A stretch of DNA of 64,000 bases, from contig CAVZPE010000008.1 of the NCBI GenBank assembly GCA_963776915.1, positions 34,124-98,123 of the forward strand, in the 5' to 3' direction. Source of the stretch: an uncultured Acidobacteriota bacterium. Lineage in GTDB: Bacteria; Acidobacteriota; Thermoanaerobaculia; UBA5066. Positions within the stretch are counted from its first letter, which is position 1, and each line of letters begins with the position of its first letter. The notes under the pieces are model-generated. The model was not told where the DNA came from and ran no database searches. It worked only from the letters and a program-made list of their open reading frames with translations. A program made the translations under genes and the position numbers. Positions 30,120 to 64,000 of this stretch are shown here, in pieces.

Positions 30120-30700
30120 CGCCGTGAAGGGCCGCCTCTCGTGTCGCCCGTCCCGGCGCCCCGCGCGCGGGTCGAGCTTCGTCGAGGTCCTCCTCGCGAT
30201 GACGATCATGGCGCTCGTCCTCGTCGGGATCCTCCAGATGTTCTCGGTCTCCCTCGTGATCAACAAGGGCTCGGCCGCCCGCACGCAGATGCTCTTCCGC
30301 TGCCAGCAGGTCGTCGAGAACATCCGGTACTTCTACTTCCTGAACCGCAACGCGACCGCCACGCCCGCGCTCCTGACGGACACGGCGGCACGTGTCCGCG
30401 TCGCCGATGACGGTGCCCGGGACGCTGCCGATTCCCCTGAGCGACGTCGCGCAGACGTTCCTGCCCTACGCCGCGACGGACGCGACGTGGCCCTACTGGG
30501 GCCCGACCGGGGCCAACGTCATGGAGCAGGAGAACGGCCCGTACAAGATCTCGTACACGATCCAGAGGGACGCGGCCCAGAGCACGCTGGGTCGTGACGG
30601 TGTCCGCGATCCCGACCGACGTCGGGACGGCGACGCGCTATTTCGGAGTCGGCCTCACGGGCGGCGGCAAGCGGGTGGACTATGTGGCGCAGTTCCAGTA
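30112..30700 (+). CDS. minor pilin (PilV-like), two frameshifts (about 30395, about 30590)
   Basis: SSFVEVLLAMTIMALVLVGIL prepilin helix in frame 1. It continues as TVPGTLPIPLSDVAQTFLPYAATDATWPYWGPTGANVMEQENGPYKISYTIQRDAAQSTLG in frame 2, then VTVSAIPTDVGTATRYFGVGLTGGGKRVDYVAQFQ stop in frame 3. Confidence 0.55.
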
Positions 30701-31978: not shown

Positions 31979-31983
31979 CGGCG

Positions 31984-32634
31984 ATGACATCGATGACCAC
32001 GAAGAACCGCGGCAGCGCCCTCGTCTCGGTCATCCTCGTGCTCCTCGTCCTCACGATCGTGGGCGTCGGCATCGCGTACTTCACGTCGATGGAGGACCGC
32101 CTCTCGGGCAACACGCGGATCGCGAAGGCGGCGTTCTACGCCGCGGACGCGGGCCTCCGCCGCGCCGAGCTCGCGTTGAGCGACACGGCCGGCCTCACGA
32201 GCACCTGCGCGCCGATCACGCTCACCCAGATCCTGAGCACCGGCTCGACGCCCGTGCTCAACGTGCCGGGCGGCGGCAACGCCGCGATCCCCCTGGACCT
32301 CACGAGCTTCAACGCGGTCGGGTGCCTCCCGGCGGTGGACCAGATCAAGTACCTCGACATCCCGGTTCCCGTCGTGGCCGGGACGCCGGTGGTGGACCGC
32401 GCGACGTACTCGCTCTACGTGAGGAACAACCTCGACGACACGGCGGGCACGCCGACGACCGACGCGGACAACATCGTCAACATCGTGGCCGGTCGGGACG
32501 GTGCAGCTCGTGGCCGGCACGTCCTTCACGCGCATCCTCGAAGAGCAGGTCATCCTCTCGGTGGGAGGTTCGTTCGGCAGCAGCCAGAAGAACCTGAACG
32601 CCGGAGGCACGGGCACCGCGCAAAGGAGAGCTCC

Positions 32635-32638
<4 letters not shown>
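31984..32638 (+). CDS. PilX-like pilus assembly protein (frameshift about 32495)
   Basis: N-terminus MTSMTTKNRGSALVSVILVLLVLTIVGVGIAYFTSMEDRLSGNTRIAKAAFYAADAGL (PilX N-domain). The C-terminus ...GTVQLVAGTSFTRILEEQVILSVGGSFGSSQKNLNAGG is in another frame. The stop overlaps the pilY1-like ATG (ATGA). Confidence 0.6.
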
Positions 32639-37816
<5,178 letters not shown>

Positions 37817-37849
37817 GCGCGCCGGGCCGGTCCCGATAAGATCCCGCGC

Positions 37850-39062
37850 ATGGACGCGGGGCCGGCCCGTCGGCGCTCCACCGGCTTCTCCCTGGCGGAG
37901 CTGCTCCTGACGCTGGTCGCGCTCGGCCTCGTCGTGTGGGTCGCGCTGCGGATCGTGGACCGCGGGACCCGGATCCCCGCCGACGCGCCGGCGACGTCCG
38001 GGCCCGAGGCGGTGCTCGGGGCGGCGGTCCGGACGATCGCGAAGGACGTGCGGGCCGCCGCGGCGGGAGGCCTGCCGGGCGAAGAGGCCCTCCGGCCCGT
38101 CGCCGACAACACCCGGCCGCCTTCGCCCTCCTCCTACCGTACGGTCGCGGGCGGGATCGTGACCGTCCGGCCCGGCACGGACCAGCTCGGCCTGAGGGGG
38201 GTGGTCCGGACGCCGTTCCTCGCCCTGGACCCGCGGTCTCCCGGAACGGCGGATTCCGTGTCCGACCGGATCCGCTCCCGGCCGACGGAGGTGCCGGTCC
38301 GCGCGCCGGCGAGCCGGGCCCGTCGGCGCCGTGCGCGCACGCCTCGGCGAGGCGCCGGCCGGCGCCAAGACGTTCTTCCTCGTCCGGGACGCCGCGGGGC
38401 GGTGGGCCGTGGGGCGCGTCGCGTCCGTCGCCGCGGGGGCGCCGGGCGGCCCGCTCGACCTCGTCCTCGACTTCGCCGACGCCGACGCGCGCGCGCGAAA
38501 CGCGGGACCGGACGCCGCGTCCGCCCTGGGCGATCCCGTCAGCGGAGGCGTCTTCGACGACCTCGTGTGGTTCGTCGCGGAGGGCAACCCGGGCAACCCG
38601 CCCGACTACGCGAGCGCGAGCGATCCCGATTCGCTTCGCCATCCGCATCCGTACCTCGCCGTCGCCGCCTCGGCGGGGGGCGGCCGCTGGGACGTCCGCG
38701 GCTCGGGGGAGGACGTCGAGGACTTCCAGGTGGCCTGGGGGCTGTCGGGGCCCACCGGGGCGCTGGAGTGGCACGGCGACACGCCGGGGAGCCAGGCCCC
38801 GGCCGCCGGTGATCTCGTCGATCCCCAGGGCCATTCGCGGCTCCGGGCGCTCCGCCTCGCGCTCGTCGCCCGTTCGCCGCAGCGTCTTCCGCGCAGCTCG
38901 GGGTCGCCGGCCCCGGAATTCGCGGTCCCGCTGAACGGCCCCGTGCCGGGCACGCTCCCGGGCGCGGCGCCGATCGGATGGGACCCCTTCCCGCAGCGGC
39001 GGATCCGGTTCGACCGCGAGACGCGCGAGGAGCTCGTCACGCTGCCGCCGCCCGCCCCCTGA
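37850..39062 (+). CDS. prepilin-type N-terminal domain protein (pilin-like, about 400 aa; frameshift about 38310)
   Basis: STGFSLAELLLTLVALGLVVWVAL N-terminal pilin helix. The C-terminal part (ORF 38331..39062) is protein-like, ending RIRFDRETREELVTLPPPAP. Confidence 0.55.
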
Positions 39063-39111
39063 CCGGCGCGGGTGTAAAATCACGGGGCATATCGTCTGGA
39101 GGGAGGGCCTC

Positions 39112-40014
39112 ATGCGTCGGCTTCTGATCGCCACGGCGCTCTTCGCGGGCTGGGCGGCTTTCGCCTCGGCCGACGAGATCTGGCTGAAGGACGGCCGCGC
39201 GATCGCGACGAACAAGCCGGTCGTCACGAAGGGCCGGAACGCCCTCATCACGACGACCGACGGCGTCCTCGTGTCGGTCCCGCTCTCGGAGATCGACCAG
39301 GCGAGGACGGCCGAGGCGAAGGCGCGCGCGGCCGCCCCGACGCCGGCGCCGACCCCGAACCTGATGAAACCGATGTCGCCCGCGGAGGCCGCCCGGCAGA
39401 AGTCCGGGAAGAAGGCCGTCGTCGTCCTCACGGACGATTCCGTCGCGCACGGGTTCGGCGACGAGGGAGGCGAGGCCAAGGCGTCGGACGGCGAGGGCCG
39501 CGTGGACGTCGCGAACACGTCGGCGACGCGCACCCAGGACGGTTACGCGTTCACGGGCACGGTCATCAACAACGGGTCGGCGCCCGTCTCGGGCGTGTCC
39601 GTCACGATCGAGTCCGTCGGAAGGGACGGCAAGACGTTCTCGTCCGCGTACGCGAACGTGGCGAAGGACTCGCTCGAGCCCGGCGAGAAGTCCACGTTCA
39701 CGGCGAGCGCGCCCCTCGAGGGCGAAGCGGCCTCGTTCCGGTACATGCCGCGCTGGCAGGTCCCGATCCCGCCGAAGACGGCGGACGAGAAGGCGAAGGG
39801 CGCCGCGCCGGGCGGCGCGGCCAAGGGCGAGGGCTCGGCCGAGGCGGAGCCGACGGCGGCTCCGACGCCGGCCCCCGTGCCGACGCTCGTGCCGATCCCT
39901 CGGCCCGACGTGGCCCCGCCGACGGCGAACGCGCCGGTGGGCAACCCGGCGAGCGGGGCGTTCCTCCCGCCGCCGGACGGATCGCAGACGACGGCCAAGC
40001 CGCCGTCCACCTGA
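39112..40014 (+). CDS. secreted hypothetical protein
   Basis: Signal peptide MRRLLIATALFAGWAAFASA. 300 aa, intact, with an Ala/Pro-rich tail. Confidence 0.6.
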   Translation: MRRLLIATALFAGWAAFASADEIWLKDGRAIATNKPVVTKGRNALITTTDGVLVSVPLSEIDQARTAEAKARAAAPTPAPTPNLMKPMSPAEAARQKSGKKAVVVLTDDSVAHGFGDEGGEAKASDGEGRVDVANTSATRTQDGYAFTGTVINNGSAPVSGVSVTIESVGRDGKTFSSAYANVAKDSLEPGEKSTFTASAPLEGEAASFRYMPRWQVPIPPKTADEKAKGAAPGGAAKGEGSAEAEPTAAPTPAPVPTLVPIPRPDVAPPTANAPVGNPASGAFLPPPDGSQTTAKPPST

Positions 40015-40036
40015 CCGCGCGGCCGGACCGGCCCTG

Positions 40037-41398
40037 ATGAGCGCGGAGATCCTGCTCGTCGAGGACCGCGAGTCCCTGCGCGCGATGCTCGCGGAAACGC
40101 TCGCGGGCGAGGGCTACACCGTGGAGCCCGTCGCGACGGGAGAGGAGGCCGTGCGGCGCCTGGGCGAGGGCCGCCGCTACGGTCTCGTCCTGACGGATCT
40201 CAAGCTGCCGGGAGCCGACGGGATCGCCGTCCTTAGGGCCGCGATCGCCTCGGACCCTTCGGTCCCGGTCGTCGTCCTCACCGGATTCGGCACCGTCGAG
40301 ACGGCCGTCGTCGCGATGAAGGCCGGCGCGGCGGACTTCCTGAGCAAGCCCGTCGACCCGGACCTCCTGCTCCTGCTCGTCGAGCGGCACGTGCGCGCGC
40401 GCCGCTCGGCCGTGGCGCGCGTCCTCCTCGCCGAGGAGGCCGGGCTTGCGGGGATGCCCGAGATCGTCGGGTCCTCGCGCGCCCTCGCCGAGGCCCTCGA
40501 ACGGGTGCGCCAGGCGGCGCCCTCCGACGTCACGGTCCTCCTGACCGGGGAGTCGGGCACGGGCAAGGAGCTCTTCGCGCGCGCTCTCCACGCTCTCTCT
40601 CCCCGCGCGCCCGGGCCCTTCGTCGCGGTGAACGTCGCGGCGCTGCCGGAGAGCCTCGTCGAGAACGAGCTCTTCGGCCACGAGCGCGGCGCCTACACGG
40701 GCGCGACGGACCGCCGCGCGGGGCGCTTCGAGCTGGCGGACGGCGGGACTCTCTTTCTCGACGAGATCGGCGAGCTCCCGGCCGCCGCGCAGGCGAAGCT
40801 CCTCAGGATCGTCGAGGAGCGGACGTTCCTGCGTGTGGGCGGGACCGCGTCCATCACCGTCGACGTGCGCCTCGTCGCCGCGACGAACAGCGACCTCGCG
40901 CAGCGCGTGAAGGCCGGCGCCTTCCGCGAAGACCTCTTCTACCGTCTCGACGTGTTCCCCGTGCGGCTCCCGCCGCTGCGCTCGCGGACCGAGGACATTC
41001 CGGCTCTCGCGAAGGCCTTCGCCGCGGCCGCCGCGCGGCAGGTCAAGAAGCGGGACGTCGCGCTCTCCCCGGGGGCGCTCGAGCGGCTCGCGGCGCACGA
41101 CTGGCCCGGGAACGTCCGCGAGCTCCGCAACGTGATCGAGCGGGCGGTCCTGCTCGCGCCCGGCGGCGTCGTCCGCCCCGCGGACATCGTCGTGGGTCTG
41201 CCGGGCGAGAGCCCGGCACCTTATCCGTCCCTGGACGGCACGCTCGAGGAGGCCGCCGAACGGTGGCGGCGGGCGGGGGAAGCCGCCCGGATCCGGCGCG
41301 CGCTCGACGAGACCGGCGGGGACAAGCCCCGCGCGGCCGAGGAGCTCGGCGTCAACGTCCGGCGCCTCGTTCAGCGCATGAAGGAGCTGGGTCTTTGA
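40037..41398 (+). CDS. sigma-54-dependent response regulator (NtrC/PilR family)
   Basis: Receiver domain, AAA+ (GESGTGKE, ENELFGHERGAYTGA), and C-terminal Fis-type HTH. 453 aa, intact. Confidence 0.8.
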   Translation: MSAEILLVEDRESLRAMLAETLAGEGYTVEPVATGEEAVRRLGEGRRYGLVLTDLKLPGADGIAVLRAAIASDPSVPVVVLTGFGTVETAVVAMKAGAADFLSKPVDPDLLLLLVERHVRARRSAVARVLLAEEAGLAGMPEIVGSSRALAEALERVRQAAPSDVTVLLTGESGTGKELFARALHALSPRAPGPFVAVNVAALPESLVENELFGHERGAYTGATDRRAGRFELADGGTLFLDEIGELPAAAQAKLLRIVEERTFLRVGGTASITVDVRLVAATNSDLAQRVKAGAFREDLFYRLDVFPVRLPPLRSRTEDIPALAKAFAAAAARQVKKRDVALSPGALERLAAHDWPGNVRELRNVIERAVLLAPGGVVRPADIVVGLPGESPAPYPSLDGTLEEAAERWRRAGEAARIRRALDETGGDKPRAAEELGVNVRRLVQRMKELGL

Positions 41399-41479
41399 CC
41401 TCGAGGCGGGAACCCGTCATGCGGGTTCCCGCACTCTCCGCTCGGCGTGCTTCGCCCGGCTGCGCTTGCGCTCGCCGGC

Positions 41480-42870
41480 TCAGCCGCCTGCGCCGGCGGA
41501 ACCGACACCCCGGAGCGCCTCTGCGAGCTCCGCGTCCTCCTCCTCCGCGACGCTGCGGAGGTCGAGAAGGACGCGGCCGTCCTCGATCCGTGCGACGACC
41601 GGGAGCGCTCCCGCGCGGAGGGCCGCGGCGAGCGCGTCGGCGGTGAGTCCGCTCCGCCTCAGGGCGACCGCCGCGGACGGGAGAGTCGACTCGGCGCCGG
41701 CGCCACCGCCCGCGATCGCCGTCGACTCCACGGCCTCGGCCTCGAAGCCGGCGGTCCGGGCCAGCGCGGCCAGCCGTTCCGCACGGACTCGCAGGGAATC
41801 CAGGGACAGCGCCGACCATCCGGAAGAACGGGACCTCGCCGCTCCGGCCCGAGAGGTGGAGGTCGAGCGTGGCGGCCAGTGCGCCGAGAACGAGCTTGTC
41901 CGGCCTCAGGGCGCGCGCGAGGGGGTTGCGTGCGGCGCGCGCGACGAGGTCCGGCGCGGCCGAGGAGGATTCCCGCCTGCGGGCCGCCGAGGACCTTGTC
42001 GCCCGAGAAGCACACGAGGTCGGCGCCCGCGTCGAGCGCCTCGAGCGGAACGGGCTCGTCGGCGAGGCCGGGCTCGTCGAAGCGGCGGGGCGCGCCCGAG
42101 CCCGCGTCGTAGACGAGGGGCACGCCCCGCGCGCGCGTGAGCGCGGCGAGGTCCGCGAGGGACGACCTCCTCCGTGAACCCGACGATCCGGTAGTTCGAG
42201 GGGCGCACCTTGAGGACCGCGCCGGCGCCCGCGTCGAGCGCCTCGACGTAGTCGCGCGCGGTGGTCCTGTTCGTCGTCCCGACCTCGAGGAGCGAGGCGC
42301 CGCTCTTCGCGAGGATCGACGGGACGCGGAAGTCGCCGCCGATCGCGACGAGCTCGCCGCGCGAGACGGCGACGGGCTTCCCGTTCGCGAGCGTGTCGAG
42401 GGCGAGAAGGAGGGCGGCGGCCGCGTTCGTGACGGCGAGCGCGTCGACGTCCGGGCGGCCGCGCGCGAAGAGCTCGAGGAGGAGCGGGCGGACGTGCTCG
42501 CCGCGGCGCCCGCGCCCGCCGGTCGCGAGGTCGAACTCGAGCGTCGAGAAGCCCGCGGCGCGCGCGGCGGCGTCGACGGCGGCGCGCGGCCAGCGGGGCG
42601 CGCCCGAGGTTCGTGTGGAGGAGGACGCCCGTCGCGTTCACGACGCGCGCGGGGCCCGGCACGGGGCCGCCCGGCGAGGCGGGCGTCCGCGTCGCGGAGG
42701 ATCGCGTCCTCCGGGGGGCCGGCGGGCGCCTCGCGCCAGCGCGCCGCGGCCTCGCGCAGGGCGGCCTTGGCGCGCTCGCGGCCGTGGCGCTCGCGACAGG
42801 GCGCGGCCGGCCGGGCTCCCGAGGAGCCGGTCCATCGGCGGGGGTCGCGTGCCGGGTCCATGGTCACGGA
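41480..42870 (-). CDS. selA: L-seryl-tRNA(Sec) selenium transferase, fragmented by several frameshifts
   Basis: SelA motifs are spread over four minus-strand frames: VVNATGVLLHTNLGRA (42662 ORF), RPSNYRIVGF (42208 ORF), DLVCFSGDKVLGGPQAGILLG (42867 ORF), and the C-terminus ALPVVARIEDGRVLLDLRSV (41731 ORF). Confidence 0.6.
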
Positions 42871-42888
42871 ATGTAGACTACTTTGTGG

Positions 42889-43517
42889 CCATGCCGGTCT
42901 CGATCGAGCGCGACCTCGACCTCCTCGAGAGGAGCCTCACGGCGCTCAAGGTCGACTACGAGCGGTTCTTCACGGGCGAGCTCCGCACGCCGCCCGTGGC
43001 GGCCCGCCGGAAGGTCGACGAGCTGCTGCGGCGCGTCGGCAACGTCGAGATCGAGCGCGGCGGCCGAGCGGTTCCGTCTCCAGGCGCTCGAGGGCCGGTA
43101 CACCGCGATGACGGAGCTCTGGGACAAGCGCCTGTCGGCGAAGGAGGAGGGGCGGGGCCTCTTCCGCGTGGTCCGGCACGGCCGCCGCCGCCGCGAAGGC
43201 GCCTCCGCCTGCGCCCCCGCCCGCCCCGGCGGCCGAAGTCGGTCTCCTCCGACGGCGAGAGCTCGACCTCCGTAAAAGCGGTCGGACGGGGCGACATGAA
43301 GTCGCTCTTCGACCGTTTCTGCGCGGCGCGCGCGTCGGCCGGGGAGGACGTGTCGAAGCTCCGGTACGACCGATTCGAGGACCTCGTGAAGAAACAGGCC
43401 GCCGAGATCCGCCGGACGACGGGCGCGACACGCCTCGCGTTCGAGGTCCAGACCCGCGAGGGGAAGGTCCGTCTCGTCGGCCGGCCGCTGCCGGCGCCCG
43501 CGAAAGGGAATCCATGA
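42889..43517 (+). CDS. conserved hypothetical protein (two frameshifts)
   Basis: MPVSIERDLDLLERSLTALKVDYERFF..., then a middle part in ORF 42883..43275 (AAERFRLQALEGRYTAMTELWDKRLSAKEEGRGLF), then the C-terminus MKSLFDRFCAARASAGEDVSKLRYDRFEDLVKKQAAEIRRTTGATRLAFEVQTREGKVRLVGRP. Confidence 0.45.
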
Positions 43518-44500
43518 CGATCGCCCGCTTCCTGCGTCCCGCCGCCGTCCTCGCTCCTCGCGCTCGCGATTCCCGCGGCGGCCAAGGACGTCTACAAGGC
43601 CTTCCTCGACCCGGGCATTCCGCAGCACAAGGCGACGCTCGACATCCTCGCGCGCCTGGAGCAGACCCCGAACGACGCGACGCTCCACAACGACCTCGGC
43701 TGCCTGATCGCGCGGGACGGCTTCTGGCGCGACGCCCTGCGCGAGTTCGAGACGGCCGAGAAGCTCGACAAGAAGGACGGGCGCGCTCCCTACAACGCGG
43801 GTCTCGTCGAGACGACGCGCGGGGAGTGGGGCGCGGCGCGCTCCGCGTTCAAGAAGGCGGTCTCGCGGAACCCGGGCAACTGGCCCGCCTGGTGGATGCT
43901 CGGGTTCGCCGAGGAGAAGCTCGGGAACCCGGACGCGGCCGTGGACGCGTACGCGACCGTCGCTGCGCGTCGACACGTCGCTCTTCGACGTGAAGCGCAA
44001 TCCCTACGCGGTGCAGTCGCGTCTGAAGGCGCGCGTCCTCCTCAAGACGTACGACGCCCGCTTCGCCCGCGCCGCCCTTCCGGTCACGGAGCAGCTCGCC
44101 CGGCCCGACATCCTGACCTCGTTCCAGGCCGGCCACGTGTCGGTCACGTCGGCGCCCGGCGCCGCCGTTCCCGAAGACGCCCTCGTGCGGACGTCGCGCG
44201 GCAGCGGGCCCGGCGGCGGCGCCGTCGCGGTCCCCTCCTCGGGCGGCGCGGTCGTGACGTCCGTTCCCCCGGTGAGCTCGAGCCGTCCCGCGGCGCCGGC
44301 GGCACCCGTGACCGGCGCGCCCGCGGCGCCGGGCCGGCCCGGCGGCCTGGAGGAGGCTCCGCCGTGGTTCCCCGCAGACGTCGCCCGCCGGGCCCGCGCC
44401 CGTGCGGACGCCCCGCCCGGCGGGCAACCCGGATCCCGGGGGCGCCTCCGCCCGACCCCGGCCCCGACGGCCCGCCGCCCCGGGCCCCGGCATCGGCTGA
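43514..44500 (+). CDS. TPR-repeat lipoprotein/secreted protein (at least two frameshifts; 3' end uncertain)
   Basis: Signal-peptide-like MTIARFLRPAAVL(LLALAIPAAA), restored by a 1-nt shift near 43550. TPR-like body (NDLGCLIARDGFWRDALREFETAEKLDKKDGRAPYNAGLVETTRGEWGAARSAFKKAVSRNPGNWPAWWMLGFAEEKLGNPDAAVDAYATV). A Pro/Ala-rich tail follows in another frame. Confidence 0.45.
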
Positions 44501-44504
44501 CGAG

Positions 44505-45847
44505 TCAGCCCTTCCACTTCGGCACGAAGAGCGTCGGGGCGCCGGCACCGCCGCCGGCGGCCGGGATGAACTTCAGGTCGTCCCCGACCGCCTCGACGCC
44601 GCGCAGGAGCTCCGAGAGCCGCCCCGAGAGGAGCGTCTCGGAGACGGCGTCGGTCGCGCGCCCCTTCTCGACCCAGTAGCCGGCGACGTGCAGGCGGAAC
44701 CGGTCCGCCGCGAGGTCGACCTGGGGCCGCGAGAGAAGCACGGCCGCGTAGAACCCCTTGACGAGGGCGCGGAGGAGGTCGAGGGGCGGAACGCCGGACG
44801 AGGGGTCGACGAAGAAGTTCGTGACGCCGATCGCGGGCGGCTCGGAGAACGCGCGGCGGAACGCGTTGCCCGTGGGCTCGGTCCCGAGACGCTGCGCGGC
44901 GGCGACGTCCGTGAGGCGCGACGCGAGGCGCCCGCGGTCGAGGACGACCGTCCGGCGCTGCGGGGTGCCCTCGCCGTCGTGCGTGGTCCGCACGGGACCG
45001 CCCGGCGCGCTCGCGGCGTCCACGAGGGTGAGGGCCGGCGCGGCGAGCGCGTCGCGCCCCTCGCGCGTTCGGGCCGCGAGGAGGCCGTCCTCGTCCTCCC
45101 CGAAGAAGGCCGGCGCCACGCGTGCGACGAGCGGCGCGGCGACGAGCGGATCGAGCAGGAGGTCCCAGCGCCCCGGCTCGAGGGGCCGGCCCTTCAGCGG
45201 GAGGAGCACGCGGTCGACCGCGTGGTGCGCGAGGCGCGCGAGCGCGAGCTCCTCCGGGCGCGCGGCGGCCGCGACGACGCGCGCGGACGCGCGGCCCGCG
45301 CCCGTGCGGGCCGACACCGTCGCGACGAGGGTCGCGAAGGCGCTTCCGAACGTGACGTCGCGCCCGGCCGTCGTCGCGACGCGCTCGGTGCGCGCTCCGA
45401 GCGCGAGCGCCGCCTCGCCGAGGAGGACCGCGCCGTCGCTCGCGGCCGCGAGCGCGCGGCGGAACGCGACGAGGAGCGCGCGCGCGGCGATCTCGTCGGG
45501 ACGCGGGGGCGGCGCGAGGGGCGCGGGGGGACGCGGCTTCGGGCAGCGGCGGGCGACGGGCGGGCTCCGCGGCGCGTGCGGGCCCGGGCCAGGAGGAGGC
45601 GCGCCTCCGCGGGCAGGGCCCGGGCGCCGTCGGCCCCGGACGCCGCGAACGACGTGCGGCCCGCCCGGAACTGGCGCACGGCGAAGCCGCGCTCGGACGA
45701 GACGCTCGCGTGGAGGCCGCGCTCGTCCTCGACGAGCTCGAGCGCCGTCCCGCGGCGCTCGTAGACCTCGCCGCCCTCGCCGTCGTGCGCGAAGGAGGAC
45801 GCCGCGGCGAGGACGTCCTCGAAGAGGCCGTCGGAGGGCGCCCTCAC
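44505..45847 (-). CDS. pmbA: TldD/PmbA-family metalloprotease PmbA (frameshift about 45550)
   Basis: The N-terminus starts at GTG 45847 ([49 protein letters not shown]; the ORF track begins at ATG 45844, MRAPSDG...). The C-terminal half is in ORF 44505..45317 (...GFYAAVLL...LKFIPAAGGGAGAPTLFVPKWKG). Confidence 0.6.
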
Positions 45848-47199
45848 GGCCGCCCCCGAGGGCCGTGAGGCCGCGCAGGAGAACGGCCGGGGAGGCGCCG
45901 CCGACGGGCAGCGGCTCGCCGCGCTTGACGCACAGGCCGAGGCCGCTCGCGGGCGCGGCGGCCTCGCCCGGCTCGCCGTAGAGCTGGCGCAGCGCCGTCA
46001 GGACGTCGGACGTCAGGAGGAACGGGCGCGACCGGGGCGCCGAGGCGCCCGCGCCGCACGAGGTCGGCGCTCTCGACGAAGAGCGAGAACCGGCCGGACT
46101 CGGGATCCGTGTGGCCGGCCGAGATCTCGCGGACGTAGAGGCCGTTCCCGCAGGCGTCGAGGAGCTCGTCGCGGCTCGCGCGGCCGGCCGCCACGAGGAG
46201 CGTCGAGAGGCGGGGGCGCGGAGGCCGGCGGAAGTCGCCGCAGCGGCCGTGCCCGTTCGAGGCGGCGCCGGACGTCCGGCGGTCCGTGAGGACTCCCGTC
46301 ACGCGGCCCTCCTCGAGGAGCGGGACGGGACGCGCGGGCGTCCCCTCGTCGTCCGCGAGATAGGAGCCCGGCAGGTCGCGGCGCGTCGGGTCGCACGTCA
46401 CGGAGAACCCGGGCGGCGCGACCGCGGCGCGCGCGACGCGCGTGAGGACCGAGGAACGCTCGCCGCTCTCGGCCTCCAGCGGGTGGCCGACCGCCTCGTG
46501 CCAGAAGACGGAGGCCGCTTCCGGCGAGAGGACGACGTCCACCCGGCCGTCGGGCGCGCGGTGCGCCGGCACGGGTCGCGTCGCCTCCGCGAGGGCCTTC
46601 GCGAAGGCGTCGCACGCGGCGGAAAAGGGGGCCGAGGACTGGAAGGCGAAGCTGCGGCTCGCGGCCGTCCGGCGCAGCACGCCCGTCGCCTCCAGCCGGG
46701 TGGCGTCGCCGCACGGGACGAAGTCCCGGCCCGTGACGACCGCGCGCGAGACCGTCACGCGCGCGATCGCGAGCGTCAGCGAGAGGCCGCGGGGGTCGGG
46801 GAGGGCGCGGGCGAGCGCGGCCGCGAGCTGCGTCGCGCGTCCCTCCTCGTCCGGGCCGGACGGACCGCGATCGTCGCGGCGGGGCGGCGGGTTCTTCGTC
46901 TTGAAGAACGGCGCGCCGCCGGCGCGCTGCGAGGCCTCGCGCACGGCCTCGCGAAGCGCCTCGGCTCCGTCGCCGTCGCAGGCGACGAGGAGCGAGTCCC
47001 TGCCCTTCGAGACGCGCACCGCGGTCCCGCGCTCCTCGACGATCGACGGCGCCTGGAGCCCCGCCTCGGTCGCGCTCCAGGTGATCGCGCGGCGCCGCTC
47101 GCGGAAGGCCTCGCCTCCCTCGCCGCGGCGCAGCATCCCCGAGACGATGCGGACCGCGTCCTCCGCGTCCTCGCGGAAGACCGTGACGTCGTCGCTCAA
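45844..47199 (-). CDS. tldD: metalloprotease TldD (two frameshifts near the 3' end, one in a GGGGG run)
   Basis: HEAVGHPLE motif. The C-terminal segment [55 protein letters not shown] is in another frame. Its stop TGA overlaps the pmbA GTG. Confidence 0.65.
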
Positions 47200-49162: not shown

Positions 49163-49216
49163 GCGATGGATCTCCGTGGCGATGTCAGGGACGACCGCTG
49201 CGCGCCGCGCCGAGCG

Positions 49217-49262
49217 CCCTCTTGACCCTTTCGTGCAGAAGATCTTCATCTGTCGGTGCTTC
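49217..49262 (+). repeat. solo half-copy of the palindromic element family plus perfect palindrome GAAGATCTTC in the accC leader
   Basis: CCCTCTTGACCCTTTCGTGCAGAAGATCTTCAT resembles the right arms at 1405, 52654 and 63824. It lies 25 nt upstream of the accC ATG. Confidence 0.35.
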
Positions 49263-49273
49263 TTTCACTCCGC

Positions 49274-50766
49274 ATGAGTAATCCCCCCGTCTCCTCATCG
49301 CGAACCGCGGCGAGATCGCCGTCAGGATCATCCGGGCCTGCCGCGACCTCGGGATCTCGCCCGTGGCGGTCTACTCCGAGGCCGACCGCGGCTCGCTCCA
49401 CGTGCGCCTCGCCGACCACGCGGTGGCGATCGGGCCGCCGCCCGCGCGCGAGAGCTACCTCGTCCCGGAGAAGCTCATCGCCGCCGCCCGCAAGACGGGC
49501 GCGACGATGATCCACCCCGGGTTCGGCTTCCTCTCCGAGAACGCCGCGTTCGCCCAGACCGTGATCGACGCCGGCCTCACGTGGGTCGGCCCGCGCCCGT
49601 TCTCGATCGCCGCGATGGGGAGCAAGACGGAGTCCCGCCAGCGGATGCTCGCGGCGGGCGTCCCGGTCGTCCCCGGCATGACGACGCCCGCGGCGTCGGC
49701 CGCCGAGGTCGCGGCGTTCGGCCGCGAGAACGGCTTCCCGCTCCTCCTGAAGGCGGCGGCCGGCGGAGGCGGCAAGGGAATGCGCGTCGTGCGCGCCGAG
49801 TCCGAGGTCGCGGAGGCCTTCGTCAGGACGCAGAGCGAGGCGAAGTCGTACTTCGCGGACGACCGCGTCTACGCCGAGCTCTTCGTCGAGCTCCCGCGCC
49901 ACATCGAGGTCCAGGTCCTGGGCGACGCGACGGGCAAGGTCCTCGCGATCGGCGAGCGCGAGTGCTCGCTCCAGCGGCGACACCAGAAGGTCCTCGAGGA
50001 GTGTCCGTCGGCCGCCGTGTCGCCGGAGCTCCGGGCGAAGATGGAGGCCGTCGCGATCGCGGCCGCGAAGGCGGTCGACTACGTCTCCGCCGGGACGGTC
50101 GAGTTCCTCCTCTCCCGGGACGGACGCTTCTTCTTCCTCGAGATGAACACCCGCATCCAGGTCGAACACCCCGTCACCGAGATGGTGTACGGCGTCGACC
50201 TCGTCGCCGAGATGATCCGGATCGCGCAGGGCCAGCCCATGTCCCTGCGCGCCAAGCCCGAGGCGCGCGGCCACGCGATCGAGTGCCGCGTCTACGCCGA
50301 GGATCCGGGGCGGGCCTTCGCGCCGTCACCGGGGCGGATCACGGCCCTGCGGTGGCCCGGCGGACCCGGCATCCGCGTGGACGCGGGCCTCACGGCCGGC
50401 GACGTCGTCCCGCTCGACTACGACCCGATGGTCGCGAAGATCACGGCGTGGGGCCTCGACCGCGACGAGGCGAGGCGCCGGATGCTGCGCGCGCTCGCCG
50501 AGACGCGCATCCAGGGCATCCAGACGTCCGTCCCGTTCTTCGTCTCCCTCCTGAACGACGCGCGCGTCGCGACGAACGACGTCTCGACGCAGTTCCTCGA
50601 CACGTACCGGTACGAGCCGCCCGTCCCGGAGGAGGGCCAGCGGGATCTCGCGCTCGCCGCGGCCGTTCTCGAGGCCCTCGAGCAGACGAAGAGCGTCCGC
50701 CCGCAGACGAAGGGGACGGCCCCGGCGCCGTGGCGGACGGCCCGGCCGACGCACGGGGTTCGATGA
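49274..50766 (+). CDS. accC: biotin carboxylase (acyl-CoA carboxylase alpha subunit); 1-nt indel in a C7 homopolymer at 49282-49288
   Basis: ATG 49274 MSN.., then with one extra C the sequence reads RLLIANRGEIAVRIIRACRDLGISPVAVYSEADRG. The rest is intact: ATP-grasp, EMNTRIQVEHPVTE. Confidence 0.8.
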
Positions 50767-51290: not shown

Positions 51291-51337
51291 CCCGCGACGG
51301 GTTCACGGCGCCGGGGGAATCGCTTAATCTCCGCTCC

Positions 51338-52528: not shown

Positions 52529-52530
52529 GA

Positions 52531-52712
52531 CGGAAGAGAGAACGGAAGAAGAGACGGATTGGAAGACAATAGAAGAGGAAGATTTTCCTAGAAGGGTGTG
52601 TGGGGCCGTGGCAGTTCGCTTCGGCGGCACATCCCCGCGGCGCCGGCGCCTTCCCCTCTTCACCTTCTAAGAAAACCCTTTCTTCTCTCTCTTTCTCTCT
52701 CTCTTCTCTCTC
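52531..52712. repeat. palindromic element copy E2 filling the convergent intergenic gap: arms TTTTCCTAGAAGGGTG / CACCTTCTAAGAAAA flanked by a long homopurine tract (left) and homopyrimidine tract (right)
   Basis: Left arm 52584-52600, right arm 52654-52676. GA-rich tract 52531-52583 mirrors the CT-rich tract 52677-52710. The region is markedly AT-richer than its surroundings. Confidence 0.55.
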
Positions 52713-52715
52713 GCC

Positions 52716-54653
52716 CTAATTCTTGAAGGGCACCTCGACGGCGAGCCAGGTCTTCACCTTCACGCCGTTCTTCGTCGCGGGCTTCCAGCGCCACTGCTGG
52801 AGCGCCTGGACGCTCGAGGCCCCGAGGCCGACGACCGGGGTCACGTCCCTCAGGAGCTCGACCTTGGCCGGCTTGCCGTTCTCGTCGATGAGGACGCGCA
52901 GGAGGACGGTGCCCGAGACCCGCCTCTGCCTCGCCATCGGCGGAACGAGGGGGCTGACCTGACGCGTCGGGACCGGCGGCGTGTCGCAGTTCTCGATGTC
53001 GACGAAGTCTCCTTCCTTCACGGCGGGCGCGGTCGGCACGGCGGCGGCCGCCGCCTGGGCCTCCTCGCGCCGCTTCGCGGCGCCCGCGCGGGCGAGACGC
53101 GCGGCCTCCTCGCGGTCGGCCCGGTCGCGCGCGAGGCGCGCCGCGTCCTCGACGTCGCGGGCCTTGTGCGCCTCCTCGGCGGCCGCTTCGATGTCGGCCT
53201 GTTTCTTCTTCGAGGCGGCGTCCTGCTGCCGGGCGGTTCGCGCCTCCTGTTTCCGGAGCTCCTCGTCGAGCCGCTTCTGGACGGCCGCCTGGAAGAGAGG
53301 GTCGTCCTTGCCGACGACGACGGGCGCGGGCGTCGGGACCGGCGTCGGCGGCGCCGCGGTCGGCCGGGGCAGGGGCGTCGGCGCCGGGGCCCGGGCGGGA
53401 GCCGAGGGCCTCAGCGCGAAGTAGGCGCCCGCCGCGAGGACCGCGGCGCCGCCGAGCGCGACGGCCCAGACCGGCACGCCGCCCATCGGCTTCTTCGGCG
53501 GTCCGGTCATCATCCTCACGGGCGCCGTGCCCTTCGCGGGCGCGGGCCGGGCGGGCGGCGGAGGCACGACCGGCTGGCGGCGCGAGCCCGTGGTCGAGTC
53601 CGCCTTGCGGCCGGGCCCCGTCGCGTCGGGCTTCGCTTCCCCGCCGCTCGCCTCGACACGCCGTCGCCCGGTCGTCTCGGCGCCGGATCGGGCGGCCGCG
53701 AGCGCCGCGGGGTCGAGCGCCTCCTCGGCGTCCATCTCCGCCCTCTCGCGCTGGATCGCGCGATCGAAGTTCTTCTGGAGGAAGAACGCGAGGTTGAAGG
53801 TCGAGGGGGCGTACGGGCCCCCGTAGAGGAGGGCCGAGAGGTCGCGCCGGTATCCGGCGACGCTGCGGTCGCGCGTCTCCGGGTCGGGGTGGAGCGCGCG
53901 GCGCAGGAGGCGCCGGATGTCCTCGGGGACGGGCGTCCCGTCGATCGCGAGGGTCGACGTCTCGACCGCCTCGAGGGCGACGCCCGGGAGAGGAGGCTTG
54001 CCGGTGAGCATCTCGAAGAGGATGGCGCCGACGCCGTAGATGTCGCCGGGCGTCCCCGGCTTGCCGGAGGCCAGCACCTCCGGGGCGACGTAGGGCGCGA
54101 AGGCCTGCCGTGCGCGCGGCGAGGCGAGCGAGGGCAGGAGTCCGGCTCCGAGGCCGTACCCGAACACGCGGGCCTCGCCCTCGTTCGACACGGAGACGAA
54201 CGCCGGGACGAGGAACCCGTGCGGGGCGCCCGTGTAGCGCTCGACGGCGGCTCCGGACTCGAGAGCGGTCATCAGGCGCTCGGCGATCAGGAGGCCGTGC
54301 TCGGCGGGCATCGCCGCTCCGAGGAGACGCGCCGCGAGGAGGACGTCGAGCGTGCGGCCCTCGACGTACTCGACCGCGAGGAACGGCGTGTCGTCGATGA
54401 CGCCGAGGACCGTGCCGCGCGCCACCGCGGGGCCCCTGGTCTCGTCGACGAGGGCGACGGCCGTCTCCATCGCGGCCAGGAGCGCCGTCCGGTCGACGGC
54501 CGCCGACGTGAAGGTCCGGACGAGGTGGAAAGGCTGCAATCGCGGGGCTCCCGCCGTGCCGCCGCGCCACACCTCGCCGAGCGGGTCGCTCCCGATCGCG
54601 CGCGTGAGGATGTACGGCCCGAAGGGCCGCGGGCTGGCTGCGGATGCGCTCAT
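52716..54653 (-). CDS. Ser/Thr pseudokinase domain - TM helix - TonB C-terminal domain fusion protein
   Basis: N-terminal kinase-like fold with an APE motif but no GxGxxG, HRD or DFG. TM helix VPVWAVALGGAAVLAAGAYFAL. Pro-rich region and charged coil. C-terminal TonB_C (VSGTVLLRVLIDENGKPAKVELLRD...QWRWKPATKNGVKVKTWLAVEVPF). 645 aa, intact. Confidence 0.65.
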   Translation of the reverse strand: MSASAASPRPFGPYILTRAIGSDPLGEVWRGGTAGAPRLQPFHLVRTFTSAAVDRTALLAAMETAVALVDETRGPAVARGTVLGVIDDTPFLAVEYVEGRTLDVLLAARLLGAAMPAEHGLLIAERLMTALESGAAVERYTGAPHGFLVPAFVSVSNEGEARVFGYGLGAGLLPSLASPRARQAFAPYVAPEVLASGKPGTPGDIYGVGAILFEMLTGKPPLPGVALEAVETSTLAIDGTPVPEDIRRLLRRALHPDPETRDRSVAGYRRDLSALLYGGPYAPSTFNLAFFLQKNFDRAIQRERAEMDAEEALDPAALAAARSGAETTGRRRVEASGGEAKPDATGPGRKADSTTGSRRQPVVPPPPARPAPAKGTAPVRMMTGPPKKPMGGVPVWAVALGGAAVLAAGAYFALRPSAPARAPAPTPLPRPTAAPPTPVPTPAPVVVGKDDPLFQAAVQKRLDEELRKQEARTARQQDAASKKKQADIEAAAEEAHKARDVEDAARLARDRADREEAARLARAGAAKRREEAQAAAAAVPTAPAVKEGDFVDIENCDTPPVPTRQVSPLVPPMARQRRVSGTVLLRVLIDENGKPAKVELLRDVTPVVGLGASSVQALQQWRWKPATKNGVKVKTWLAVEVPFKN

Positions 54654-58974: not shown

Positions 58975-59034
58975 CTGGAAATTTCTTAGAGGGTGAAGAT
59001 GGCTCTGCCGCCCGTTTACCCTTCTAAGAAATCG
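58975..59034 (+). repeat. compact palindromic element copy E3 (TTCTTAGAGGGTGAAG ... ACCCTTCTAAGAA) straddling the annotated lptD start
   Basis: Arms at 58984-58999 and 59018-59030 can pair as a stem of about 13 bp around a 20-nt loop. A TTG at about 59054 would give the signal peptide MRRRLPFWLILAV. Confidence 0.45.
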
Positions 59035-61285: not shown

Positions 61286-61500
61286 CGAGAGATCGATCCC
61301 CCGGGGGACACTTCCTTCCGGAGAACCTGCCGATCAGGCCCGGATTCAAAAAACCGTAGAGGAGCCTTCCCATTCACCCTTCCCGGATCCTTCGAACGCT
61401 TTCCGCCGCGGCCCTGGTCGCCTCGGCAGCCCTGGCGCTCGCGGACAGGGCCACCGCCGACGCGGCGACCCTCGTCGCGGCCTCGTGCTCGGCCCCGATC

Positions 61501-63591: not shown

Positions 63592-64000
63592 CGCCGCTGC
63601 CACGCGAGGAGATCCTCCGCAAGGCGGTGCACGTCGGGATGGCGGGGTTCGCGCTCCTCCTGCGGACGCTGACGTGGCAGCAGGCGGCGGCCGCGGCGGG
63701 GGTCGCCCTCGCCTTCAATGCGGCGATCTTCCCGCGGGTTTCGCCGCATGTTCTTAGAAAGGAAGAGAGGGCGGCTCGCTTCTCCCTCGGGATCACGCTT
63801 TATGCGGCCACCGTGCTTCTGCTCATCTTCACCTTTCGAAGAAATCTCCCTCTCGCCGCCGCCGGATGGGGCTACCTGGCATTTGGGGACGGGTTCGCGA
63901 CCCTCGTCGGGATGACCGTGGGGGGGGCGCGTCTGCCCTGGAACCCGAAGAAGTCCTTCTCCGGCTTCCTCGGCTATCTCGTCTTCGGTTTCCTCGGCGC
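63588..64000 (+). CDS. integral membrane protein, 3'-partial at window end (possibly CTP-dependent lipid kinase/cytidylyltransferase-like)
   Basis: The ATG overlaps the rmlD stop. Hydrophobic helices; KKSFSGFLGYLVFGFLG at the window end. It contains element copy E4. Confidence 0.4.
   Translation, partial: MTPLPREEILRKAVHVGMAGFALLLRTLTWQQAAAAAGVALAFNAAIFPRVSPHVLRKEERAARFSLGITLYAATVLLLIFTFRRNLPLAAAGWGYLAFGDGFATLVGMTVGGARLPWNPKKSFSGFLGYLVFGFLG
63749..63858 (+). repeat. palindromic element copy E4 (TTCTTAGAAAGGAAGAGAGGGCGG ... CATCTTCACCTTTCGAAGAAATCTCCCTCTCGCC) embedded in-frame in the final membrane-protein CDS
   Basis: Left arm 63751-63774, right arm 63824-63858. It encodes ...HVLRKEERAARFSLGITLYAATVLLLIFTFRRNLP... 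inside the ORF. Confidence 0.45.

Follow-up and report, generated by a model that had tools for sequence, protein, structure and literature searches.

What are the AT-richer arms that recur in inverted pairs along the 64,000-nt stretch of Thermoanaerobaculia DNA analysed here (the window)? A preliminary description regarded them as a dispersed family of inverted arms around GC-rich cores, resembling MITE, REP, Correia or RPE elements, or alternatively as the operator of a dimeric regulator. Thermoanaerobaculia are abundant uncultured Acidobacteriota of soil and sediment, and we found no description of their repeat content; the literature on repeats or MITEs in Thermoanaerobaculia and Acidobacteria offered nothing specific, and a full-text search with the arm sequence returned no paper. 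Together with the lack of any Rfam match at gathering score over the whole window, this bears out the initial impression that no known element family is involved. Scans for tRNA and tmRNA genes in the window also gave none.

Copies in the window

Four doublets, E1 to E4, lie where they had been placed at first, each with an L arm on the forward strand and an R arm on the reverse strand. The features are, in order of position:

1268-1292, + strand: L arm of E1, TTTTTCTTAGAAAGGGTAATGAGGG, in the linker of a TonB-like CDS (1027-1809, + strand); peptide VFLRKGNEG
1405-1428, - strand: R arm of E1, CCCTCTTCACCCTTCGATGAAGCC, inside the TonB-like CDS 1027-1809; peptide PSSPFDEA
49163-49282: 120-nt insert lying after the carboxyltransferase stop and before the accC start, carrying a degenerate R-like 'solo arm' (49217-49249)
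52529-52582, + strand: homopurine (GA-rich) flank of E2, beginning right at the TGA stop of a DsbA-like gene
52583-52605, + strand: L arm of E2, degenerate, TTTTCCTAGAAGGGTGTGTGGGG
52606-52650: GC-rich core of E2, unrelated to the cores of other copies
52651-52674, - strand: R arm of E2, in which 52654-52673 is a perfect 20-mer TTCTTAGAAGGTGAAGAGGG on the - strand
52675-52712, + strand: homopyrimidine (TC-rich) flank of E2, reaching the stop (52716-52718) of a convergent kinase/TonB_C gene
58979-59002, + strand: L arm of E3, AAATTTCTTAGAGGGTGAAGATGG, between a CoA-transferase gene and lptD
59003-59010: loop of E3, 8 nt
59011-59034, - strand: R arm of E3, CCCGTTTACCCTTCTAAGAAATCG
63751-63771, + strand: L arm of E4, weak (4 mismatches), in a membrane-protein CDS running from 63588 to the window end; peptide VLRKEER
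63823-63843, - strand: R arm of E4, weak (4 mismatches), in the same membrane-protein CDS; peptide IFTFRRN

The gap between two convergent genes is wholly occupied by E2, whose homopurine and homopyrimidine flanks had been recognised from the outset, and the L arm of E3 holds possible starts of lptD (GTG at 58993, ATG at 58996). The L arm of E4 is conserved in L024. Taken in the narrow sense, the arms span 1271-1292 and 1405-1425 in E1, 52585-52605 for the L arm of E2, and 58983-59002 and 59011-59030 in E3. The copy list needs some pruning: the 'solo arm' is a very degenerate R-like arm within an insert, and its membership of the family is weak, and the candidate at about 61330-61400 was recovered by no scan. 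Between 2 and 49 kb there are no further copies, which makes a 47-kb stretch without any.

A two-part arm scan (TTCTTAGAA and GGTGAAGAGGG with a small gap between them) gave 6 arms in the window against 0.46 in Markov-2 controls, and the motif TTCTWAGAA was seen 4 times where 0.02 occurrences are expected. With at most 3 mismatches, TTTCTTAGAAGGT has 8 matches (1.2 expected), two of which (63748-63760 and 63750-63762, each with 3 mismatches) overlap and constitute one near-palindromic site. All of the approximately seven distinct sites fall where copies had originally been reported.

The family, its unit and its hosts

How far does the family extend beyond the window? Its arm consensus is the 20-mer TTCTTAGAAGGTGAAGAGGG, found in 88 of 102 pattern matches and superseding the longer AAAGGG form of the arm proposed earlier; upstream of it lies a polypurine tract of about 20-25 nt. 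Across the sampled loci and the window (846 kb) we count 201 arms against 0-1 in shuffled controls, in roughly balanced orientation (105 L arms, 96 R arms). The k-mer ATTTCTTAGAAGG tops the enrichment, and the short arm core is more than 400-fold over-represented, occurring about once per 11 kb; the overall arm density is about 1 per 8-11 kb, and perfect 20-mers are sparse and uneven, at about 1 per 100 kb. Unrelated metagenomic loci totalling 770 kb contained no arm. This control came from a metagenome scan with the CoA-transferase, which returned almost only distant relatives (~43-63% identity) along with one short contig at 78% identity; L183, with its empty E3 site, comes from the same scan.

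An absence of further copies, named beforehand as the outcome that would speak against a family, is not what we found: the exact 20-mer occurs in at least 22 Thermoanaerobaculia/Acidobacteriota species genomes, produced by different studies and with different assemblers. Since these assemblies are independent, an assembly artefact is ruled out. Four exact pattern matches on viral contigs come from low-GC phages, in a conserved protein-coding context (FLDGEEG), and are unrelated. The repeat is apparently an undescribed one, distributed clade-wide in many Thermoanaerobaculia species.

The unit of repetition is smaller than the doublet. Non-orthologous copies are alike over about 35-47 nt only, covering the flank and the arm (44 of 44 positions between L001 and L105), and the GC-rich core, already seen to differ between the copies of the window, is never common to unrelated copies. 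The doublet is therefore not the replicating unit, unlike in MITEs and REPINs; what repeats is a half element, about 45 nt in length, composed of the polypurine tract and the 20-mer.

Doublet arrangement and folding

Neighbouring arms in the loci and the window follow the order LR in 32 cases, RR in 8, LL in 3 and RL in 2, and solo arms are common. The inverted pairing first described is thus a property of the family, but the spacing of 20-110 nt is not, being 8 nt in E3 and 8-250 nt overall. In 24 of 29 folds the two arms of an element are base-paired to one another; whole elements have a mean folding z of -3.0 and cores of 0.03, no more structured than shuffled sequence. By itself the half unit forms no hairpin (-0.7 to -1.3 kcal/mol, z about 0). 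Folding of the individual copies, suggested as a check, yielded long hairpins for E2 and E3 (z about -2.9) but an unremarkable result for E1 (z = -0.9). The arms within an element need not be complementary: the L195 element joins a consensus L arm to a CACAC-variant R arm.

Such hairpins raise the possibility of a structural or regulatory element selected by the host, which would terminate or stabilise transcripts or whose 20-mer would be bound by a clade-specific protein, much as the BIMEs of E. coli are bound by gyrase and IHF. The conservation of the arm sequence across many species is in keeping with this, as is E2, which fills a convergent gap and folds well on both strands. We nevertheless hold it to be unlikely: the cores are unstructured, the loop under the stem can reach 250 nt, which sets these hairpins apart from intrinsic terminators, and the two arms of L195 do not match. 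The position of the arms and their turnover bear on it further.

Position relative to genes

Within the limits of the purpose-made GC3-based caller applied to the loci, which is crude at gene starts, 87 of the 201 arms (~43%) lie in GC3-supported coding sequence, where they are read through in frame in either orientation. Arm density in intergenic DNA is about eight times that in coding DNA, with 1.7 arms per kb in convergent, 0.9 in tandem and 0.7 in divergent intergenic regions. The peak between convergent genes would suit elements selected by the host, and so would the overall density, which is of the same order as that of REP/BIME sequences in E. coli; the large intragenic share, essential genes included, and the 47 kb of the window devoid of copies would not.

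Could the arms instead be operator sites, at which a dimeric transcription factor recognises the near-palindrome TTCTnAGAA? The best conserved segment of the arm, TTCTTAGAA, is indeed palindromic over 9 bp, with half-sites of 4 bp, and start codons are in some cases overlapped or closely preceded by an arm, as at lptD in the window and at aroB-like and NagZ-like genes. Conservation is asymmetric, however, extending over 20 nt and the polypurine flank; the most variable position disrupts the 9-bp palindrome, and the commonest arm variants, TTCGAAGAA and TTCAAAGAA, break it. The arms show no bias in orientation or position relative to the neighbouring genes, nearly half of them are in coding sequence, and occupied sites are empty in close relatives. 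This alternative of the preliminary description is already largely refuted, and we give it next to no credence.

A promoter reading was also dropped, as inspection by eye revealed no sigma-70 -35/-10 spacing in either orientation, and orientation bias is lacking. The arm bears a loose resemblance to a Shine-Dalgarno sequence or a mimic of the 16S 3' end. A classical hairpin with a T run does occur in single cases such as L022.

Intragenic arms are found in the TonB linker of the window and in MurE, DnaE and IspE of other genomes, the coding location being confirmed for TonB, IspE and MurE; further in-frame copies occur in L053/L076 and in a hydrolase with a 36-nt insert. The MurE with an in-frame copy has about 53 residues more than MurE of M. 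tuberculosis. In coding phase 0 the R-arm core TTCNAAGAA has G or A in nine of nine cases where T would create TAA. In IspE both arms fall within native sequence that aligns gaplessly to E. coli IspE, and the R-like arm covers a conserved GHMP-kinase motif, written in rare, A/T-ending codons; as judged from this alignment, simple insertion does not explain these arms. Arms are embedded without indels in aroB-like genes too, again with rare codons. Four species with flanks 73-77% identical have kept perfect 20-mers at orthologous places in coding sequence, a persistence behind which ascertainment and coding constraint could lie.

Native coding sequence spelling out the arm in rare codons would be compatible with host selection. 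It is also what would be expected of a driven recognition motif of the DUS/USS type, or another target of DNA processing, accumulating by biased uptake or conversion and not by transposition. A short core so over-represented in nearly equal orientations, common to many species, present in coding and non-coding DNA with depletion in the former, and arranged in inverted pairs after genes would fit such a motif, and the consensus arm of E2 beside its variant partner hints at conversion to consensus. We still consider a motif of this kind improbable, because drive acting on point mutations does not yield insertions of 45-190 nt or identity of up to 44 nt that includes the flank. Density is low and uneven besides, the arms decay quickly in close relatives, and neither the L...R polarity nor the variable cores would be explained.

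Turnover between relatives

Do related genomes carry the same copies? Variation in position, which the preliminary description suggested testing between related strains, is evident. In the 97% relative L193, flanks are 96.5-97.8% identical to the window, yet E2 is unalignable by BLAST: its core is strongly different and the homopurine flank is about 51 nt longer in the window. The E2 site is occupied in five genomes and empty in L196 and L198. At the E3 site, L183, L196 and L198 are empty, L194 and L197 carry the L arm alone, and the window carries L and R; L194 lacks a 26-column block, GCCGCCCGTTTACCCTTCTAAGAAAT (~59006-59031), corresponding to the E3 R arm and the preceding 8-nt loop. Where E2 or E3 is missing, the genes simply overlap or abut. 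The 120-nt insert at 49163-49282 is absent from L193 (97% identical), L194 and L196, and the carboxyltransferase/accC junction received independent inserts in the window and in L197. Elsewhere an element is present in L100 and L107 and absent in L030, another is present in L102 and absent in L045, and an arm of L066 has decayed relative to L068. Where elements are gained, the inserted DNA measures 45-190 nt and its flanks resemble microsatellites.

Between orthologous pairs, cores are 72.5% identical, inner partner arms 67% and outer flanks 82%. The partner core TTCNAAGAA is conserved somewhat better than the cores (85% against 72.5%), which a host-selected element would predict; the inner arms, on the other hand, evolve like neutral DNA, and the empty E2 and E3 sites show such copies to be dispensable. 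With its fast gain, loss and remodelling, the repeat looks like selfish DNA rather than a regulator binding site.

Search for a mobiliser

How might such an element move? In 108 loci of 8 kb there was no autonomous IS with matching terminal repeats, and clustering of all predicted locus proteins revealed no multi-copy gene accompanying the arms; genes and ORFs between the longer arm pairs are housekeeping. A RAYT query found the sole Y1 transposase of the sampled loci, in L073 (Y1_Tnp PF01797, E = 9e-11), whose terminal repeats, GGTCAGGTCTGTGTTATGTGTTAT, are unrelated to the arms. The best comparisons of empty with occupied sites (CACTAATTC for E2, CTGTGACGG for the 49163-49282 insert) gave no clean target-site duplication, the junctions being remodelled.

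Conserved inverted arms of about 20 bp around arbitrary segments of variable length, some of them intragenic, are also reminiscent of invertons, in which a shared site-specific recombinase would use the arms for crossover and flip the cores, within genes as well. We reject this reading as scarcely credible: cores are collinear in all six aligned orthologous doublet pairs, spacings as short as the 8 nt of E3 cannot invert, the repeating unit is the half element, solo arms are common, and the loci contained no recombinase gene associated with the arms.

Proposed explanation

Overall, we think it somewhat more likely than not that the copies represent a clade-specific, non-autonomous interspersed repeat of Thermoanaerobaculia that propagates as half elements. 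The propagating unit, about 45 nt long, would consist of (A/T)T-TTCTTAGAAGGTGAAGAGGG with a GA-rich polypurine tract before it, and would land mainly at gene boundaries, often across overlapping stop/stop or stop/start junctions, and also in tolerant protein loops. An inverted partner arm would often be added nearby, so that most copies are L...R doublets in which the two arms pair around an arbitrary GC-rich core. Polypurine and polypyrimidine tracts presumably lengthen and shorten in the manner of microsatellites, and arms and cores change far more rapidly than the genes on either side. Since the arm contains stop codons, an intragenic copy would be retained only if its reading frame, or point changes in it, keep clear of them. 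Spread may depend on a trans-acting enzyme, or on template switching and recombination; if an existing arm were copied by fold-back, both the L...R polarity and the presence of doublets with unrelated cores would be accounted for. Once transcribed, the long hairpins of doublets between convergent genes may act incidentally as terminator-like or 3'-end structures, and the doublets may supply stop or start codons.

We also entertain, as a rather doubtful proposition, that the half element is a new self-propagating or enzyme-written motif of about 45 nt, which has no transposase of its own and makes its inverted partner locally. Short-patch conversion or template switching would place copies of it at gene boundaries and even within native coding sequence; alternatively, a clade-specific recombination or uptake system would write it. 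If true, this would explain the indel-free arms over the conserved IspE motif, single arms converted to consensus, and doublets around unrelated cores.

If, as we favour, the copies are a non-autonomous interspersed repeat, its presence has practical consequences. Hundreds of copies per genome would mark gene boundaries and disturb gene calling; the repeat can provide stop and start codons, makes proteins longer and separates genes that would otherwise overlap. As a fast-evolving marker it separates genomes with 97% identical flanks. The addition of low-complexity peptides to essential enzymes (MurE, DnaE, TonB) offers a parallel to Rickettsia in a GC-rich lineage.

Comparison with known systems

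Which of the known repeat classes comes closest? The REP, BIME and REPIN sequences of Proteobacteria, mobilised by RAYT tyrosine transposases (survey, PMC3733652), share several properties with the present family: they are short interspersed repeats in inverted doublets or small clusters that form long hairpins, lie mostly after genes in convergent or tandem settings with occasional intragenic copies, and have spacers less conserved than the repeat. However, each REP is an imperfect palindrome (a stem-loop of 20-40 nt) with a GTAG or CGTC tag, whereas the half unit here is non-folding and untagged; REPIN spacing is fixed per family, in contrast to 8-250 nt with unrelated cores; the sampled loci contained no RAYT gene bordered by these arms; and with 87 of 201 arms in coding sequence the family is not extragenic in the manner of these repeats.

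The comparison with RPEs of Rickettsia, suggested initially, is an apt one. In both cases palindromic repeats lie in frame within genes for proteins, some of them essential, where the low-complexity peptide segments that they add are tolerated, and related species carry them at orthologous sites. The RPE is nevertheless a unit of 100-150 bp conserved throughout, whereas here the arm and its flank alone are conserved. The two are not related in sequence, nor would homology be expected in an acidobacterium of 70% G+C, and their hosts differ in phylum and base composition.

The MITEs (Correia/NEMIS of Neisseria, RUP, Nezha) are likewise non-coding elements of 60-200 bp that end in inverted repeats of about 20-26 bp, are present in some relatives and absent from others, and have the capacity to provide transcription or translation signals to neighbouring genes; the excess of LR over RL orders (32 to 2) with arm pairing in 24 of 29 folds gives our doublets inverted repeats at their ends as well. 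Yet MITEs have a common interior and size classes, in place of which we see no common core and widely varying spacing, and they have target-site duplications and related autonomous IS, neither of which appeared in the sampled loci. The ERIC/IRU sequences of Enterobacteriaceae resemble the family as imperfect palindromes in transcribed intergenic regions, with sequence conserved across genera, occupancy varying between species and no known transposase, but ERIC is a 127-bp unit conserved throughout and essentially extragenic. DUS/USS of Neisseriaceae and Pasteurellaceae are also clade-wide short motifs in both orientations and in coding and non-coding DNA, forming inverted pairs after genes and embedded in coding sequence via codon choice; the density here is much lower and uneven, the flanking insertions are long and decay is fast in close relatives. 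Intrinsic bidirectional terminators are compact GC-rich hairpins with a U tract, whereas here it is the AT-richer arms that pair, around large loops.

Taken together, the behaviour of the repeat resembles that of non-autonomous palindromic elements such as REPINs and RPEs; with neither a transposase nor a target-site duplication nor a conserved core found in the sampled loci and the window, it is no classical MITE or REP, and no Correia element. A conserved half unit, a microsatellite-like flank, partner arms acquired later, unrelated cores and no visible transposase place it outside the standard MITE/REP models, and for that reason the repeat could inform how such repeats arise and spread.

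A clade-wide repeat built from half elements

The AT-richer inverted doublets E1-E4 lie in the window where the preliminary description placed them, and the sequence there matches what it described. With L denoting the orientation TTCTTAGAAGG... and R its reverse complement, the AT-rich ends face outward in each doublet.

Arms of the four inverted doublets in the window
E1: L arm 1271-1292; R arm 1405-1425
E2: L arm 52585-52605, degenerate; R arm 52654-52673, a perfect 20-mer
E3: L arm 58983-59002; R arm 59011-59030
E4: L arm 63751-63771, weak; R arm 63823-63843, weak

TTCTWAGAA occurs four times in the window against 0.02 expected, and a scan that requires TTCTTAGAA with GGTGAAGAGGG at most a few bases after it recovers six arms against 0.46 in Markov-2 controls. 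At up to 3 mismatches TTTCTTAGAAGGT has eight matches against 1.2 expected, all at the reported places, with two overlapping at one near-palindromic site, which leaves about seven distinct sites. The solo arm proposed at 49217-49249 is R-like and very degenerate; the weak candidate near 61.35 kb was recovered by none of the scans, and scans of the window found zero copies at 2-49 kb. E2 takes up all the space from the stop of a DsbA-like gene (52528) to that of a convergent kinase/TonB_C gene (52716), its flanks being polypurine on one side (about 54 nt) and polypyrimidine on the other (about 38 nt). E2 and E3 fold as long hairpins on either strand (z about -2.9); E1 does not.

The window also contains a 1-kb tandem array (32928-33928; period 6/12, CGACGCCGACGC, about 83 copies, 72% matches), which covers the 3' end of an ORF of about 1,000 codons (open frame 30598-33609), extends some 320 nt past its stop and lies where the AT skew is extreme (0.57). 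One frame, not necessarily that of the ORF, would give a long Asp-Ala dipeptide repeat. At 33600-47000, where G+C reaches 0.78-0.82, our GC3-based caller yields few confident genes; long overlapping ORFs occupy both strands, with zero repeat copies.

One genome per species was scanned for TTCTTAGA-N(0-3)-GGTGAAGAGGG, giving more than 108 loci. Apart from a few low-GC chance matches (3 among the 80 matches listed, 4 among 108 loci), these belong to MAGs with the label Thermoanaerobaculia or Acidobacteriota. The motif is carried by the genomes of at least 22 different species, and since these stem from several studies that differ in assembler and sequencing technology, it is neither an artefact nor private to the window genome. 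No arm was found in 770 kb of unrelated metagenomic loci, and four viral matches were dismissed as coding coincidences in low-GC phages. Rfam gave no match for the window, a tRNA scan found no tRNAs near copies, and a literature search found no paper containing the arm sequence. The family is real and clade-wide, and apparently undescribed; its modular architecture is unusual and its turnover fast.

Its anatomy was derived from 846 kb, made up of 104 high-GC loci and the window. Most arms (88 of 102 matches) are exactly the 20-mer TTCTTAGAAGGTGAAGAGGG, preceded by 20-25 nt of 75-93% purine with T at position -1 and followed by GC-rich sequence without consensus. With ascertained copies masked, the most enriched core k-mer is ATTTCTTAGAAGG, and TTTCTTAGAA occurs 55 times where 0.12 are expected, about once per 11 kb; a tolerant scan of the 846 kb finds 201 arms against 0-1 in controls. 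Adjacent arms are ordered LR in 32 cases, RR in 8, LL in 3 and RL in 2, with an inner spacing of 8-250 nt. Non-orthologous copies have about 35-47 nt in common, comprising polypurine flank and arm (44 of 44 identical between loci L001 and L105), and never the core, which identifies the half element as the repeat unit. Isolated half elements do not fold, and cores have no structure beyond that of shuffled sequence (mean z 0.03); whole doublets average z -3.0, with arm-to-arm pairing in 24 of 29 folds. Relative to L024, locus L089 (about 3640-3704) has an L arm and polypurine flank that are partly tandem-duplicated, in its species only (GAAGATTTTCTTAGAAGG ... GAAGATCTTCTTAGAAGGTGAAGAGGGG), and the 11 direct LL and RR pairs of the sample probably arose by such tandem duplication.

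Arms within and between genes

By the calls of the GC3-based caller, made for this analysis and crude at gene starts, 87 of the 201 arms fall within coding sequence, where both orientations occur. Coding sequence has about 0.12 arms per kb, divergent or tandem intergenic sequence 0.7-0.9 and convergent intergenic sequence 1.7, with no bias of arm orientation relative to neighbouring genes. E1 falls in the linker of a TonB-like protein with an N-terminal anchor (apparent SxxxH motif, read from the translation) and a C-terminal TonB_C domain, and E4 in a membrane-protein gene. Whole doublets are translated in frame (FLEGEEG ... PSSPSKK, for example L053/L076); MurE has about 53 extra residues around the arms compared with M. 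tuberculosis MurE, a hydrolase contains an in-frame R-arm insert of 36 nt that its orthologue lacks, and DnaE-like genes carry arms at two sites, one species having a solo arm and two others a doublet. Three of the six reading frames of the 20-mer contain stop codons, and where the R-arm core TTCNAAGAA stands in coding phase 0, nine of nine copies have G or A at the position where T would create TAA.

The R arm (CCCTCTTCACC(C)TT(T)CTAAGAA) loosely resembles the 3' end of 16S rRNA and the start of the spacer (TCACCTCCTTTCTAAGGA), and the L arm accordingly looks like an extended Shine-Dalgarno sequence; the likeness could be a coincidence of purine richness. Arms occur on or just before the starts of an aroB-like gene (GTG within the arm), a NagZ-like gene (2-3 nt downstream) and lptD in the window.

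Some coding copies argue against simple insertion. In IspE (L004, L095) an L arm, read as FLEGEEG, and an R-like arm overlying the conserved GHMP-kinase motif (IHLSKRIP-GGGLGGGSS) both fall in a gap-free alignment with E. coli IspE and are written in codons ending in A or T, which these genomes seldom use. The aroB-like gene appears to follow this pattern too, judging by an eye comparison with E. coli AroB. Perfect 20-mers are kept at orthologous coding positions in four species with flanks 73-77% identical, which may be due to ascertainment on perfect copies together with coding constraint.

Turnover at orthologous sites

The element is missing in L030 and present in L100 and L107, and likewise missing in L045 and present in L102. 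For the window copies, syntenic loci were obtained via homologues of the DsbA-like protein. In L196 and L198 the E2 site is empty and the two convergent genes overlap (CACTAATTC); it is occupied by 187 nt in the window, 117 in L193, 93 in L194 (a decayed L arm only), 102 in L195 and 135 in L197. Window and L193, its closest relative, are 96.5-97.8% identical in the flanks of E2, and the BLAST alignment is interrupted over 52529-52687: the L193 copy has a polypurine tract 51 nt shorter, a different core and differences in both arms. At E2 one arm is the consensus and its partner a GTGTG or CACAC variant, on a side that differs between genomes, which hints that single arms are rewritten. The E3 site is empty in L183, L196 and L198; L194 and L197 have an L arm alone, at the 5' end of lptD and in its frame (TAG to TCG), and the window has an L arm with a 26-nt R arm.

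The solo-arm region (49163-49282) is a 120-nt insert missing in L193, L194 and L196, where the carboxyltransferase stop overlaps the accC start; in L197 this junction bears an independent 154-nt doublet. No target-site duplication could be defined at this insert or at E2 by comparing empty and occupied sites. After the insert, accC of the window has a new ATG (49274) whose frame is not that of the conserved N-terminus (PRLLIANRGEI), and an in-frame TAA at 49279-49281. The frame would be restored if the C6 run at 49283-49288 were one C longer (MSNPPRLLIANRGEI), and the break is probably a homopolymer error of long-read assembly; if it is not, the insert damaged the accC start. L197 alone has a further 70-nt insert (8356-8425), GC-rich, hairpin-like by eye and without family arms, between accC and the biotin-carrier gene, which overlap in relatives; small insertions thus seem to favour gene junctions in general in this clade. 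The 47-nt spacer from the biotin-carrier to the DsbA-like gene (51291-51337) is an AT-richer island with GGATCGCTTAATCTCCGC directly before the start codon, conserved at the junction in L193-L198: most relatives have the motif, L198 with one mismatch (GCATAAT).

Orthologous doublets change like unconstrained DNA, with identities of 72.5% in cores, 67% in inner partner arms (85% for the partner TTCNAAGAA alone) and 82% in outer flanks. An arm has decayed in L066 compared with L068, the flanks being far better conserved than the element (mean of 89% over the whole alignment). This near-neutral decay, the sites empty in relatives, the unstructured cores and the non-complementary arms all weigh against a structural element selected by the host, which the enrichment between convergent genes and the IspE case would favour; we regard it as unlikely, though worth keeping in mind. 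A driven motif resembling an uptake signal would suit the embedded copies but not insertions of such length, a density so low and uneven or decay so rapid; it is quite improbable. Cores are collinear in six orthologous pairs and hence show no sign of inversion; an inverton is poorly supported and scarcely credible, as is the operator for a dimeric regulator suggested in the preliminary description.

Possible origin and relation to known repeats

The best-supported reading, to which we lean with some reserve, is an interspersed repeat that is non-autonomous and specific to the clade. As its unit, the half element would colonise gene boundaries and tolerant protein loops, inverted doublets would arise by local addition of a partner arm, and flanks would expand through slippage, with fast turnover of the repeat. 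Copying might involve an unknown enzyme, conversion or fold-back template switching, and the hairpins may play a role in transcripts. The family would be of greater interest if the half element turned out to spread with no dedicated transposase, or if some unknown DNA-processing system acts on it.

In the sampled loci the arms have no accompanying transposase. The sole Y1 transposase of the sample (L073, 5700-6700; IS200-like, 320 aa, PF01797, E = 9e-11) has its own terminal inverted repeats of about 24 bp (GGTCAGGTCTGTGTTATGTGTTAT), unrelated to the arms; a perfect arm lies about 450 nt from its gene. This transposase with its inverted repeats resembles the 'TIRtron' arrangement described for Acidobacteria (PMC3733652).

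Of the MITE-, REP-, Correia- or RPE-like affinities first proposed, the likeness to REP doublets and RPE holds, and membership fails for each family. Unlike a REP, the unit forms no hairpin and lacks a GTAG or CGTC tag; unlike MITE and Correia elements, the copies have neither a core nor a size class in common, and the loci sampled showed no target-site duplication and no parent IS; and conservation is limited to the arms, which separates it from RPE- and ERIC-type units. We therefore place the family among the small palindromic interspersed repeats: in working it is closest to REP/BIME/REPIN doublets (surveyed in PMC3733652), it shares in-frame intragenic copies with the Rickettsia palindromic elements, and ERIC, for which no transposase is known, offers a precedent for cross-genus sequence conservation.
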